A stretch of DNA of 64,000 nucleotides, taken from the IMG/VR virus record IMGVR_UViG_2811995040_000001, positions 1 to 64,000 of that record. One strand, given 5' to 3'. Below, in pieces: positions 25,835 through 36,721 of this stretch. The stretch comes from a virus (lineage: Duplodnaviria > Caudoviricetes). The translations under genes and the position numbers were made by a program. How positions within the stretch are numbered: the first letter of the stretch is position 1; every line of letters begins with the position of its first letter. Below the pieces are notes generated by a model. The model saw only the letters and a list, made by a program, of their open reading frames with translations. It was not told the origin of the DNA and searched no databases.

Positions 25835-25859
25835 ACTGACCTCCTTATGTGTCCTGCTT

Positions 25860-26020
25860 GTGATTTAATTTCCATCGTAGTCGATTTGGCAGGTACTGTG
25901 TAGCCTGACTCCTCCTAGGGTTTAAGCCCGTATGTAAGCATATTGCGCACAGTCACTCGCCTTATCTACAAGCCCGTATTGTTGATTGAATTAACAAGTT
26001 CGTACATAAGGTAGGGAAAA
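25860..26020 (+). ncRNA. Putative IS110 bridge RNA
   Basis: Non-coding region upstream of the IS110 gene with stems (ACTGTG/CACAGT, TTGTTGAT/ATTAACAA) and segments matching the target and donor junctions; ends approximate. Confidence 0.65.
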
Positions 26021-26021
26021 G

Positions 26022-27002
26022 ATGAGGCAGCCAGGATCGCACACATTAAGACTTAAGACTCAGGTCGCTCTGGACATCTCCAGTAAATCACTTGATGTCC
26101 ATTTCAAATCTGATGGAAATGCTTTTTCTGTACCTAATACGGAAGAAGGCCTTAACCGTATTCTGAAATCATTCATAACCTATGACGTGTCTCTGGTACT
26201 GATGGAATCAACCGGTGGATATGAGGATTTGTCAGCGTGTTTTTTTCAGTCTCGTGGGTTTGATGTAGCGGTAGTTAACGCACGTCATGCCCGTAGCTTT
26301 TCCCGTGCTATGGGGAAACTTGCAAAAACTGACCGGATCGATGCGGCTGTACTTGCCGACATGGCATTTATGATTGATTCGAGTCGCGATCGTGATCGTT
26401 ATATAAAACCGCTTACTGATGAACAACGTAAACGCCTGTCAGTGATGACTGTTCGCCGACGTCAGGTGGTTGGGTTAATCAGTACAGAAAAGCAGCGTTT
26501 AACTCATGCTGATGACTGGACCAGATCCAGTATTAAAAAAACGATTAAAGCACTTACAACTGAACTGCGACATATTGAACAGCAGATTTCGGACCATGTT
26601 AAAAAAAACTTCGTCGACCTGTCGAAACTGCTTTTAAGCATACCCGGTATCGGTGAACAGGCCATGAGTGTTTTAATTGGTGAACTTCCGGAACTCGGTA
26701 AAGCTGATCGTCGTACTGTCAGTGCGTTGATTGGTGTTGCACCGTTTAATCATGACTCCGGTAATTTTCGCGGTAGACGCCGTATATTGGGTGGACGCCA
26801 GTCTGTGCGTAATGTCCTGTATATGGGGATTATCAGCGCCACCCGTTTTAACCCTGTTATCAGGTCTTTCTATAACCGACTGGTCAGTGCAGGTAAGCCC
26901 AAAAAATTGGCGTTGATAGCCTGCATGCGAAAACTGCTCACCATTATTAACGCCATGATGAGAACGGGAAAACCCTTCGACGTGTCGTTACACGGGGTGT
27001 GA
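26022..27002 (+). CDS. IS110-family (DEDD) recombinase
   Basis: ALDIS, LMEST, KTDRID (DEDD); SIPGIG; NHDSG serine; ACMRKLL. Confidence 0.93.
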
Positions 27003-27003
27003 T

Positions 27004-27186
27004 ATGAAGACCATCATTTACGATTACAGCTCTGAATTTCCTGACTGTGGCGTACTGGCAGACCTCCCTGACGGGGAAGGGGTTTTCTTTAATACATTTG
27101 ATGACTTTATGTCGTTTGTGGATGATGAGTTTTCTGATGTGCAGCTCGTTCCCCTGTTTGAGGAGGGCGAAAATGAGTACATCTGA
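27004..27186 (+). CDS. Small, very acidic phage protein
   Basis: 60 aa, 16 D/E versus 1 K; tightly coupled to both neighbours. Confidence 0.6.
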   Translation: MKTIIYDYSSEFPDCGVLADLPDGEGVFFNTFDDFMSFVDDEFSDVQLVPLFEEGENEYI

Positions 27187-28318
27187 CAACATGGTGCGTG
27201 TTGATGCGCTGTCTTTCTCTTTCAGCATTTCATATATGCGTGACCTTTCGAAATGGTATGAGTTTAGCAGAGCATCAGGCTATAACGGTGTTCTCCCTGA
27301 ATTTCCGGTTCCGCCCTCACAGACTGATTTCAGAACCGGATTAACCCTGTCATCAGATGTGTATCAGCGTTTACTGGATGATTACTATCAGGAGTATTAC
27401 AACGCGGTTTACTCGCGCATTTTCCTTTTTTTCGACCGAATTTTCGGACTGTCAGTGGGACCGGTGCGTTCCCGTGGTATGCAGGGCTATACCCATTCCT
27501 GCCGTCTGTTTTCATCGGATGGTCAGCATGAATGCGGCTGGCTGATGTTTGGTGGGGCTAATCAGAAAGATACCGCGCATGTGCAGCTCTCCGGCGTGGG
27601 GTGTCGTCATCTGTTTATGAACATCACGCCGTATCTTCTCTGGAATACGCTTAAGGGTCTGGGGGTGACGCGCCTGTCACGTGTTGACCTGTGTTTTGAT
27701 GACTTTACCGGAAATTTCGGTACAGCCTATGCACTGACGGCTTACAAGGACAGGGCTTTTCTCACGGGTAAAGGTGGTCGTGTTCAGGAACTTGATGTTC
27801 GCAGGCCTCTGGCGGGTGAGTCACTCAAAGGTGACACGGTATACATTGGAAAACGTAAATCCTGTATTTACTGGCGAATTTACGATAAGGCTCTTGAACA
27901 AAAAATTGAAGGTGTTTCCTGGTATCGCTCAGAAGTGGAATTAAAAAAAGTCACTGTTGATGTACTTTCTGATGTTGACGCATTTTTTGCGGGTATTTGT
28001 GATTATTCTGCCTCTCTGTTGAGTGGTCATATTGAGCATATACGCAAGCTCCCGCGCGATGAACGCCAGAAAATGAAAAACCTCCTGCCCTGCCTTGAAT
28101 TACTGGGAAGGATAAAGCGAGTCCGTCGCCAGTTCGGAAAAATAGCGTCTGAGGTGCTGGATATTTTCGATGGTGATACTGGTGCAGTCTTCGGTCTGCT
28201 TGCCAGTGATGAGGCAATAAATAAATTTAATCTGGGTGAATACCAGCGTTCTCTTAAACAGGGTGGCGTGATATTCAGCCATTCCCGACAGAAACAACGT
28301 TTATATGGAGTAAATTAA
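27173..28318 (+). CDS. Rolling-circle replication initiator (Rep_trans family)
   Basis: LSRVDLCFDD, TVYIGKR, WRIYDKALEQ, WYRSEVELK; GGAGG RBS before ATG 27173. Confidence 0.9.
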   Translation: MSTSDNMVRVDALSFSFSISYMRDLSKWYEFSRASGYNGVLPEFPVPPSQTDFRTGLTLSSDVYQRLLDDYYQEYYNAVYSRIFLFFDRIFGLSVGPVRSRGMQGYTHSCRLFSSDGQHECGWLMFGGANQKDTAHVQLSGVGCRHLFMNITPYLLWNTLKGLGVTRLSRVDLCFDDFTGNFGTAYALTAYKDRAFLTGKGGRVQELDVRRPLAGESLKGDTVYIGKRKSCIYWRIYDKALEQKIEGVSWYRSEVELKKVTVDVLSDVDAFFAGICDYSASLLSGHIEHIRKLPRDERQKMKNLLPCLELLGRIKRVRRQFGKIASEVLDIFDGDTGAVFGLLASDEAINKFNLGEYQRSLKQGGVIFSHSRQKQRLYGVN

Positions 28319-35268: not shown

Positions 35269-35679
35269 GGTAATTAGTGCAGGATTGAACGAAATCGTCG
35301 GGCAGATCCTGCATGTAAAATTGTATCTTTTGTTGTGCGTGGCATTAGTTGACGTTTGTCTGCGTGGCTACGTCAACAATGATGCGAATGATTATTGATT
35401 GTACGTTTTTTTTACAGATCAGTTATTCAAAATATTTCAATTAAATAAGCAATCATTGGGATTGAGCCATGATTTTGTCAAATTCATTTTAATAAAAAGT
35501 ATTTTATATTTAGTAAATTATAAATACTTTCATTATAATTTAATCACTTCAAAAAAAACGAATATATTAGCTTTATTTTTTTGTTGATCTTTTATATTTG
35601 CGGTTTATATAGTAGCTCCAAGGCCTTATCTATACTTAGTCATTTTAATATGTTGGATCGAAGATATTTGAGGTGTGAA

Positions 35680-36225
35680 ATGATGTGGTTTTTTGGTGTT
35701 TTAATTTTATTGTTTTTGTTAGTCGTTATTCCTTTTTTAAAATTGAAAAATTCCAATCGTTATAATGCAGAGATAAAAAATAAAGTCAAAGCTACGGATA
35801 TAATGAAAAATAACAATAAATCCTTCGAGAGAAAACCTTTTTTAACTACAAGGGAACGTGATTTTTTTAAGAAGTTAATAGAGGATCTTAAAAGTGAATA
35901 TTATGTTTTATCACAGGTTAGAGTGGTTGACATAATAACCCCAAATAGACAATTCATCGAAAGCAGCAGGGAGTTCAATGCGTTATTTAGACAAGTTTCT
36001 CAGTGGCATTGCGATTTTTTAATCATTAATAGAGATTTTAATGTTGAGCTTGCAATTGAGTTGGATGATTCAACTCATAAGCATCCCAAAAGGAAAAGAA
36101 GAGATGAAATTTTTAATACAGCATTTAGCCATTCCGGGGTTACTCTAATTAGAGTAGTTGATTACAACCAGTTTCTTAATCTCCCTCAGAGTGGTTTATT
36201 TTTAAAAAATAATGACTCAGTTTAA
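35680..36225 (+). CDS. DUF2726-like protein with N-terminal TM (phage cargo)
   Basis: FLT.RE..FF, QVRVVDII, HCDFLI, AIELDDSTH...RD motifs; very AT-rich. Confidence 0.75.
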   Translation: MMWFFGVLILLFLLVVIPFLKLKNSNRYNAEIKNKVKATDIMKNNNKSFERKPFLTTRERDFFKKLIEDLKSEYYVLSQVRVVDIITPNRQFIESSREFNALFRQVSQWHCDFLIINRDFNVELAIELDDSTHKHPKRKRRDEIFNTAFSHSGVTLIRVVDYNQFLNLPQSGLFLKNNDSV

Positions 36226-36420
36226 ATTTTTATATATGTTTTTTTTATGCCTGTTAAGGCATGGTAGCGAAGCGATACCCCGCAGCGCATGCGCGAGGAC
36301 TCAGAAAGCCTCACGATTCATCGTGAGAATTCCCTTATACTGCAAAGCTGCTTTTAAGCTTTTTACCGATTTGAAGTAGCTTGTGTTACCTACGTCGCCT
36401 TTTATTGAGCGTTGACTGAA

Positions 36421-36537
36421 GTATCCGCCGCCCCCGCAGGTTCGAGGAGGCGGCGGATACAAGGACAATGCGAGTATCTAAGACAGTCTCTTAGAAAAGC
36501 TGATGCTCATCTGTATCCCCGTATCTGTAATACGGGG
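36421..36537 (+). other. Putative filamentous-phage replication origin hairpins
   Basis: GTATCCGCCGCC...GGCGGCGGATAC stem, and CCCCGTAT-CTGTA-ATACGGGG with TAATA similar to Rep_trans nick sites. Confidence 0.6.
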
Positions 36538-36685
36538 GTTAACTCAGTACTTATATGCGGCTTTCCCTAATTTTTACCTTTCGGTTTTCCCGCTTTTGAT
36601 ATTTGAATCCAGTCTTGAACTTTGAATTTTCTACTTTTATATGTGATAGAGATCATGTTTAACATAGTTGCTTACGTGATTCGCC

Positions 36686-36721
36686 TTGACATCCTCCACG
36701 TCCTTTAGGACGTGGAGGATG
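36686..36721 (-). mobile_element. 36-bp palindromic IS605-derived element
   Basis: Minus strand TTTAA|catcctccacgtcc-taaa-ggacgtggaggatgTCAA. Confidence 0.7.

Follow-up and report, generated by a model that had tools for sequence, protein, structure and literature searches.

How does a filamentous phage enter a chromosome when it appears to carry neither a tyrosine nor a serine integrase? This question is raised by a 64,000-nucleotide stretch of DNA (positions 1 to 64,000 of IMG/VR virus record IMGVR_UViG_2811995040_000001; hereafter the window), which is part of a 77-kb provirus record with tail genes resembling those of Salmonella Gifsy-1 and Gifsy-2. Within it, a plus-strand block of inovirus genes is flanked by minus-strand tail-fibre genes of 85 amino acids (aa; 25577-25834) and 354 aa (36722-37786). 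An initial annotation of this DNA had proposed that the whole phage is the cargo of an IS110 recombinase programmed by a bridge RNA. We consider it likely that the locus holds a 10.8-kb Salmonella inovirus carrying a complete IS110-type integration system, split over both ends of its genome, and that its integration is guided by a bridge RNA. This conclusion draws on the exact ends of the element, a comparison of three insertion sites, an RNA fold supported by homology and covariation, and guides that are complementary to the DNA and differ from one element to another by compensatory changes. The core idea of the annotation thus gained evidence, whereas its boundaries, a proposed 'mini-element', the target and the circle junction did not stand.

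Both components of the system are recognizable. The phage combines a pI/Zot ATPase, a small hydrophobic major coat protein, a rolling-circle Rep and a single-stranded DNA (ssDNA)-binding protein in a genome of 10,827 bp, within the 5-15 kb range of inoviruses, and all of these core genes are open and complete. The full inovirus gene set that had been described is therefore present, and no tyrosine or serine integrase was matched among the 13 open reading frames (ORFs) scanned. The first gene encodes an IS110-family recombinase, with a full-length match to the ISCro4 and IS621 transposases (IS621, E 3.5e-29). Its catalytic residues had been described as intact, and we found D18, E62, D104, D107 and S246 to be invariant in 10 relatives and aligned with the catalytic motifs of ISCro4. 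As also reported before, the recombinase stop codon (27000-27002) is followed directly by a phage ATG at 27004.

The element, as mapped from the ends and junctions shared with its relatives, spans 25846-36672 and measures 10,827 bp with one core. CTTA is repeated at both ends (25844-47 and 36671-74), and as TA follows the core in both target and donor, the crossover cannot be placed more finely. The initial annotation had set the boundaries at 25843-36687, flanked by CCTT. The right end is instead the CTTA at 36671-36674 and not the CCTT at 36684-87, so that the earlier end lies 13-15 bp too far to the right and the target and circle junction reconstructed from it are wrong. The 36-bp 'mini-element' (36688-36722) that had been subtracted to extend the flank to CCTTA occurs once in the window and is best read as native host DNA between tail-fibre genes. 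The stretch 36675-36687 is likewise host DNA, and the match of TCGCCTTAT to the proposed junction is therefore spurious.

The right end indicates how phage and insertion sequence (IS) are related. Its motif (36659-36674) agrees in 16/16 bases with the right end of an element in the type strain of S. enterica subsp. diarizonae, and it is homologous to the ACAGTTG-CT end of stand-alone relatives, the version in the window and in S. diarizonae being ATAGTTG-CT. Within the 10.5 kb after the recombinase stop, ATAGTTG is found solely at 36664, and this right end lies 9,669 nt 3' of the stop, behind the last phage gene. The phage is therefore situated inside the IS: the whole inovirus is enclosed by IS110 element ends or, equivalently, the phage has an IS110 system of its own, the two ends of which are joined only in the circular form. 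IS110 elements lack terminal inverted repeats, are flanked by a short shared core and leave a scarless empty site; the CTTA at both ends of the window element fits this pattern, while the scarless insertion is seen at the occupied and empty sites of the S. diarizonae relative.

Three insertion sites could be compared, namely those of the window, of a close relative (X type) and of S. diarizonae. The X-type phage is 93-95% identical to that of the window and was found in three runs from three studies (X6, X11 and X14), where it aligns exactly on 25843-36676 before giving way to unrelated flanks; parts of the phage are without contig cover in X11 and X14, and the stretch 30732-31200 is swapped for 278 other letters. 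An IMG/VR locus (L197), the record of which is a cut provirus, holds the same X-type phage with the same right junction, and in a fourth run (X4) the phage occupies the site seen in the window. Homologous prophages with other boundaries had been named as evidence that would count against the proposal; this close homologue has the same ends. Together with the right-end identity in S. diarizonae, the boundaries of the X-type match define the element as 25846-36672. At all three sites the left IS end is also the left prophage end, and the sites share nothing beyond the sequence specified by the guides.

The S. diarizonae element is the closest relative among species-representative genomes (recombinase 61% aa identity). 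It measures 12,481 bp and lies between yadI and yadH, and its right end follows the last gene after only about 50 nt. Upstream of the recombinase, its sequence shows plain homology to window positions 25844-26021. The unoccupied sequence was present in three of the four other Salmonella genomes searched, the fourth matching part of the query only. An occupied site is distinguished from an empty one by the element and one extra CTTA, the empty site having CTTA once. No such empty counterpart was detected for the locus of the window itself by megablast or blastn of the flanks against phages or by a DNA search of five Salmonella genomes; in those flank searches only a J-like gene further to the right matched Gifsy-1 and Gifsy-2.

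At the X site, the right flank (L197 1-1074, minus strand) is another, unrelated IS110-family transposase gene, with the insertion about 60 nt upstream of its start, indicating that one RNA-guided element has landed in or beside another. A contig of run X6 that ends 24-25 nt outside both phage ends was considered as a hint of coexisting empty sites and rejected, because this transposase gene is a likely repeat that breaks assemblies.

More distant relatives (48-49% aa identity) are ordinary insertion sequences of 1.2 kb, the left ends of which begin with CT and then T-G/A-TAT like that of the window, and the right ends (..ACAGTTG-CT) of which follow the stop codon by 12-22 nt in 5/5 elements read. 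A stand-alone IS110 ending near 27002, which had been named as a possible objection, was found in none of the four contexts with recombinases of at least 61% identity (the window, the X type, S. diarizonae and L083); the last of these is a metagenome contig on which a recombinase 85% identical to that of the window is directly followed by phage Rep (88%) and G5P (92%). Other searches for relatives gave less. The element was without megablast match in E. coli genomes, phages or plasmids, a 20-nt stretch of its left end had no match in IMG/VR, and an IMG/VR protein scan with the window recombinase found no relatives; an alignment used as query instead found nine loci, all 47-50% identical. The 16-nt right-end motif had 19 matches in IMG/VR, none with the RNA and only L197 with phage genes, and the other 18 were taken as chance. 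Proteins 59-92% identical to the recombinase occur in Salmonella, Citrobacter and Klebsiella, several of them on contigs of 6.8-10.6 kb, a phage-sized length that hints at further such phages.

We next consider the RNA. RNAalifold analysis of eight full-length left ends, from the window and seven relatives, predicted two stem-loops (SL1 and SL2), both containing an internal loop as well as a small inner hairpin, and 8/25 pairs were compensatory. A covariance model built from these left ends (R1) had one match in the window (111.6 bits, E 4e-25) and 84 matches in 100 loci encoding IS110 relatives. Across these 84 matches, 94.7% of cells were standard pairs as compared to 70.5% in shuffles, with none of 500 shuffles reaching the observed values; 24 of the 25 pairs had changed on both sides, and slid controls were at most 51.9% paired. 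Folded as a single sequence, the RNA is not more stable than shuffles (z -0.65), and support for the structure thus comes from covariation and not from energy. These results place a two-stem-loop structure with internal loops in the left end upstream of the recombinase, where bridge RNAs are encoded.

Signals for transcription are suggested by the same alignment. T-A-n-n-n-T is invariant at alignment columns 23-28, and the left end appears to hold a -10-like TTTAAT at 25864-69 with TG before it. No sigma-70-like site was detected on the plus strand of the left end in the integrated state; in the circular form, the last bases of the right end (TTGCT) would supply most of a -35-like hexamer. Contigs from RNA libraries cover 25843-26691, a type of evidence that cannot reveal a transcript. 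At the foot of SL1, ATTTGGCA (window 25884-25891, alignment columns 41-48) is nearly invariant in all eight left ends and resembles a -35 box (TTGGCA), making it a candidate protein-binding motif or promoter element.

Bridge RNAs date from 2024 (Durrant et al., PMC11208160; Hiraizumi et al., PMC11208158). In IS621, the left target guide (LTG) equals the top strand of the left target plus core, the right target guide (RTG) is the reverse complement of the core plus right target, and the donor guides follow the same pattern (PMC11208160). Under these transferred rules, we read the guides at fixed columns of the alignment and checked them against the flanks as mapped (Table 1). The motifs listed in the initial annotation were at the positions given (CCTCCT, 25911-16; TAAG, 25935-38; GTTTAAG, 25920-26; TCGCCTTAT, 25957-65; ACATAAGG, 26004-11), and not all of them are guides. 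In the target loop, CCTCCT belongs to the LTG and TAAG to the RTG, while GTTTAAG is the loop of the inner hairpin; for the donor, ACATAAG was upheld as a guide and TCGCCTTAT was not, as homology places the left donor guide (LDG) at 25978-25986.

In addition to the pairing in the window, the RTG pairs with its target at all eight positions in S. diarizonae (one G-U) and at 6-7/8 in six other relatives, and between four and six of the six non-core positions are paired by the cognate RTG in all eight elements. Over six distinct guide classes, 32/36 cognate positions are paired, a value reached by 2/720 permutations. Between the window and S. diarizonae there are compensatory changes at target positions 3 and 5, with position 4 a G:C pair there and G-U in the window. 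Among close relatives, 25932 A>C in the X-type RTG matches T>G at target position 5 of the X site, and this is one of only two differences between the window and the X type in the 178-nt left end. For the LTG, the register was fixed by a relative with an 8/9 match (L072); matches to the target are 6/9 in S. diarizonae and, by hand, 5/9 plus one G-U at the X site, and over the six guide classes 29/42 positions are paired with the cognate target, which 10/720 permutations reach.

Similar agreement is seen for the donor. The right donor guide (RDG) pairs with the core and the first seven left-end bases, in S. diarizonae at 9/9 positions (two G-U) with a compensatory change at donor position 4 (G:C versus A:U); in stand-alone ISs this pairing is discontiguous, as reported for IS621. 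The LDG matches the right end at 6/7 positions in S. diarizonae and at 7/7 in five of six other relatives, the sixth (L076) having 6/7 including one G-U. Stand-alone relatives have ACAGUUG as guide and ACAGTTG as end, and position 2 has changed from C to T in both guide and end. When the handshake rule (PMC11208158) was applied by hand, CA at 25939-40 after the RTG pairs with donor positions 7 and 6, and of GU at 26011-12 after the RDG, the G pairs with the C before the core at all three sites. Overall, the RTG, RDG and LDG fit well and the LTG partly.

The guides also locate the distant end. From RNA letters only, a 15-mer was assembled as the seven LDG nucleotides, CT and the reverse complement of the six non-core RTG nucleotides, and its best match was the true right junction in all eight elements. 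In the window this match, at 36664, has three mismatches, two of them at G-U positions, and elsewhere in the 10.5 kb downstream of the recombinase stop there are at least five, so that no IS right end is found near the stop. For L072, the same recipe locates an end in genome G201 that has one mismatch and lies 7.1 kb downstream, on the strand of the recombinase gene.

Several points weigh against this interpretation. The window recombinase is distant from that of IS621 (E 3.5e-29), and the rules had therefore to be transferred. LTG matches of 5-6/9 fall far short of those in IS621, where 0-2 mismatches are usual, the LDG has one mismatch to the phage end and also mismatches the core C, and the window RTG would pair equally with the L072 target, meaning that the guide classes are not fully distinct. 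By chance, about 0.13 matches to the 15-mer with three mismatches would be expected in 10.5 kb; the match gains its weight from falling on an end that was mapped independently. Covariation was assessed on an alignment fitted to the model, which favours structure, and no Rfam family matched at E up to 1. The putative junction promoter (TTGCTT, 17 nt, TTTAAT) scores 8/12, no better than chance sites, and the circle joint 36672-25846 was not seen in contigs of X4, X6, X11 and X14, a weak negative since contigs drop rare forms.

If the interpretation holds, integration may proceed as follows. Circularization of the phage genome as the double-stranded replicative form would juxtapose its ends and create the donor site, probably together with the junction promoter. 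The RNA would be transcribed and would bind the recombinase, its presence being required for the reaction. One loop would pair with the phage junction through the donor guides (25978-86 and 26002-10) and the other with the chromosomal site through the target guides (25908-16 and 25931-38), and the DEDD/Ser recombinase would then exchange strands at the core CT. The remaining specificity would be supplied by the RTG, which differs between phage lineages. The prophage presumably still produces virions.

On balance, we lean towards a broader proposal, in which an enterobacterial inovirus lineage has swapped the att/integrase or dif/XerCD routes for an RNA-programmed one, with a guide-coded site of about 14 nt, an anti-Shine-Dalgarno left half, retargeting by single-base changes in the RTG (25932 A/C) and a replicative form that is itself the IS110 donor circle. 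As the replicative form doubles as donor circle, infection could go straight to integration without a separate excision step. The window and yadI sites are Shine-Dalgarno sequences of minus-strand genes (on the gene strand, TAAGGAGGT, 5-6 nt, ATG), and two of the three sites are such ribosome-binding sites because the LTG resembles an anti-Shine-Dalgarno sequence (CCUCCU). In the window, the Shine-Dalgarno sequence of the 85-aa host gene is the reverse complement of 25838-25847, the left target half. This gene keeps its Shine-Dalgarno sequence after insertion because target and donor both continue TA after the core, and it is separated from whatever lay upstream. Under this proposal, strong ribosome-binding sites anywhere would be candidate landing pads.

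Alternatively, the element may be an 'expanded' IS110 that captured a now defective inovirus and moves only as a transposon, with the phage as passive cargo. We regard this as unlikely. IS110 elements of up to about 100 kb with plasmid- or phage-derived cargo have been described (10.64898/2026.08.14.744561), and the window phage is known here from sequence alone rather than as virions, circles or phage transcripts, with no virion or circular record found. A relative of the recombinase, in an element of 8,262 bp, also has non-phage cargo between the same kinds of ends. Against passive carriage, the core inovirus genes are all open and complete, and several records hold the lineage at 85-99% identity with its gene order conserved. 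Moreover, two inoviruses with unrelated Reps carry the module at the same place in their genomes: the S. diarizonae cargo is a different inovirus with a KfrA-like protein, a Phage_GPA-type Rep (Rep_trans in the window), a coat protein, Zot (29% identical), a secretin (42%) and a DUF2726 protein, the gene for which is the last in both elements. Finally, Thermus filamentous phages with a terminal IS110 transposase have been isolated as viruses (PMC11437467).

The relative with non-phage cargo (L180; genome G201, contig C17, 61750-70013) has a recombinase of 49% aa identity, and its distant right end was located from the guides alone. Its cargo comprises a Gly-rich 116-aa peptide with a small neighbouring ORF, an HlyD-type protein, a C39-peptidase ABC exporter and a ClpP-like ORF, and resembles an export cluster for a bacteriocin or microcin that travels within an IS110. 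Relatives of the system therefore also transport non-phage genes.

Far less probable is site-specific recombination by protein only, of the Piv/MooV type, with the upstream structure acting as a leader in translation or transcription. The loop contains CCUCC, which is complementary to Shine-Dalgarno-like sequences and could sequester the ribosome-binding site of the recombinase in some relatives, two of which (L069 and L073) have AGGAGG before the ATG, and the matches between LTG and target are only partial. In the window, however, the ribosome-binding site of the recombinase (AAGGUAGGG) is not complementary to CCUCCU. A leader would also leave unaccounted for the co-change of the RTG with the target and of the RDG with the donor, in the base-pairing sense and at positions homologous to the IS621 guides, as well as the prediction of a distant right junction by the guides. 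Least credible of all is that an ordinary IS110 landed in a prophage integrated by an unseen integrase or by XerCD at a dif-like site, the classic route of other enterobacterial and vibrio inoviruses (PMC11209303), as the left IS end coincides with the left prophage end at three different sites, both the 15-mer and ATAGTTG point to 36664 rather than to the recombinase stop, and the scan of 13 ORFs revealed no integrase.

RNA-guided integration of the inovirus thus remains the favoured interpretation, and it can be compared with three groups of known systems. With IS621 and the IS110 group, the window shares a DEDD/Ser recombinase with both Pfam domains (PMC11208160, PMC11208158), a non-coding left end upstream of the gene with two stem-loops and internal loops (PMC11208160), guides at homologous positions that pair with left and right target and donor around a CT core, a left end beginning CT-T(A/G)TAT and a handshake that fits the published rule, its first base in every case read by hand. 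The differences from IS621 are that an entire inovirus separates the right end from the recombinase, a distance of 9.7 kb, that the RNA is without an evident extra 5' stem-loop, that the RTG is long (8 nt) and the effective LTG short (about 6 nt), that the RDG pairs contiguously rather than discontiguously, and that the target is Shine-Dalgarno-like where that of IS621 is a repetitive extragenic palindromic (REP) element. In addition, the protein is only distantly related, and the window system is so far a genomic observation.

The second group comprises the Neisseria Nf/MDA, Acinetobacter Af1 and Thermus phiOH16, Zuza8 and Zuza27 phages, which are also inoviruses with an IS110/Piv-type transposase at one end. 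An IS110-family transposase has been stated to be the presumed integrase of the Nf, Af1 and Thermus phages (PMC11209303, PMC11437467), and Roux et al. (2019) class such transposases as 'integration or selfish element' (PMC6813254); the portions available of the first two reports do not mention a guide RNA for these phages. In a tblastn search, 13 of 22 phage records matching the window recombinase were named Inovirus (10) or Thermus filamentous phages (3). The recombinases of the Neisseria, Acinetobacter and Thermus phages are only 25-30% identical to that of the window. Nf phages target dRS3 repeats, whereas the host of the window phage is Salmonella and its targets are ribosome-binding sites.

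The third group consists of the large-cargo IS110 elements of Hu et al. (10.64898/2026.08.14.744561), which likewise carry kilobases of foreign, including phage-derived, DNA and tolerate partial ('half') guide matches; such tolerance is reported in two 2026 preprints (10.64898/2026.08.14.744561, 10.64898/2026.08.31.748434). The emphasis of Hu et al. is on plasmid DNA and resistance genes, and the available text mentions no inovirus or filamentous phage. Unlike their elements, the cargo in the window is a self-replicating circular virus, the replicative form of which is itself the donor circle. Inoviruses with IS110 transposases and IS110 elements with large cargo are thus already known. What is new is the link of a guide RNA to an inovirus integration module and the Shine-Dalgarno-like target, neither of which was found in the literature searched, supplementary element lists aside.

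If correct, our interpretation provides a natural example of a virus with an integration site set by a guide RNA, in which natural retargeting is visible between close relatives, and shows bridge recombinases naturally carrying a self-replicating cargo of 10-12 kb. It also bears on the spread of filamentous prophages among Salmonella and its relatives. Tools that seek an integrase or a long att repeat would misplace the ends of such prophages, because they have neither, and the initial annotation had likewise misplaced an end.

Table 1. Coordinates of the features of the inovirus element and its surroundings in the window, with guide and gene assignments as predicted here
Feature	Position	Strand	Details
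Left copy of shared CTTA	25844-25847	+	core dinucleotide CT at 25844-45
IS110 left end, non-coding	25846-26021	+	opens with right-donor bases TATGTGT
Bridge-RNA homologue, 140 nt	25882-26021	+	SL1 ~25887-25961, SL2 ~25973-26016
Left target guide (LTG), ACUCCUCCU	25908-25916	+	equals target top strand at 6/9 (CCTCCT)
Right target guide (RTG), UAUGUAAG	25931-25940	+	25931-38 pairs with 36671-36678: 6 Watson-Crick, 2 G-U
Left donor guide (LDG), AUUGUUGAU	25978-25986	+	6/7 against 36664-36670, the 7 bases directly preceding the core of the right end
Right donor guide (RDG), GUACAUAAG	26002-26012	+	26002-10 pairs with 25844-25852: 7 Watson-Crick, 2 G-U
IS110-family DEDD/Ser recombinase, 326 aa	26022-27002	+	Pfam DEDD_Tnp_IS110 2e-20, Transposase_20 2e-16
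60-aa ORF	27004-27186	+	
Rolling-circle replication initiator	to 28318	+	frame open from 27047, start uncertain; Pfam Rep_trans 2.8e-19; phrog_453 7.5e-84
ssDNA-binding G5P-like protein	28321-28641	+	followed by a 74-aa ORF
Major coat protein	28836-29150	+	coordinates of the frame
Two paralogous proteins, 571 and 566 aa	29204-32621	+	common C-terminal domain; both phrog_3942
pVI-like minor coat protein	32608-32922	+	
pI/Zot assembly ATPase	32909-34033	+	
pIV secretin	33988-35268	+	
DUF2726 protein	35581-36225	+	last gene
Non-coding region	36226-36658	+	GC-rich hairpin with 15-bp stem at 36421-36460
IS110 right end	36659-36672	+	terminates in core CT (36671-72)
Host DNA, Gifsy-like prophage	36673-36725		right target half, then native hairpin 36686-36725

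Some features of the phage itself deserve mention. From their position and size, the tandem 571- and 566-aa paralogues are probably adsorption (pIII-like) proteins, and they may be interchangeable. The GC-rich hairpin behind the last gene is a candidate packaging signal or origin, possibly that of the complementary strand. The terminal 8 nt of the right end, TAGTTGCT, recur inside the phage at 29083-29090, near the coat gene, and this additional copy could serve as a half-match pseudo-end for partial excision, as in the 2026 preprints.

On the host side, the native hairpin to the right of the element follows the stop codon (36722-24, minus strand) of the 354-aa tail-fibre gene. Inserted downstream of a J-like gene of 1120 aa, the inovirus splits an operon of minus-strand tail-fibre genes (24463-25834 and 36722-41215), and the 85-aa and 370-aa genes to the left of the insertion have kept a ribosome-binding site and lost upstream transcription. 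This split may disable the resident Gifsy-like phage.

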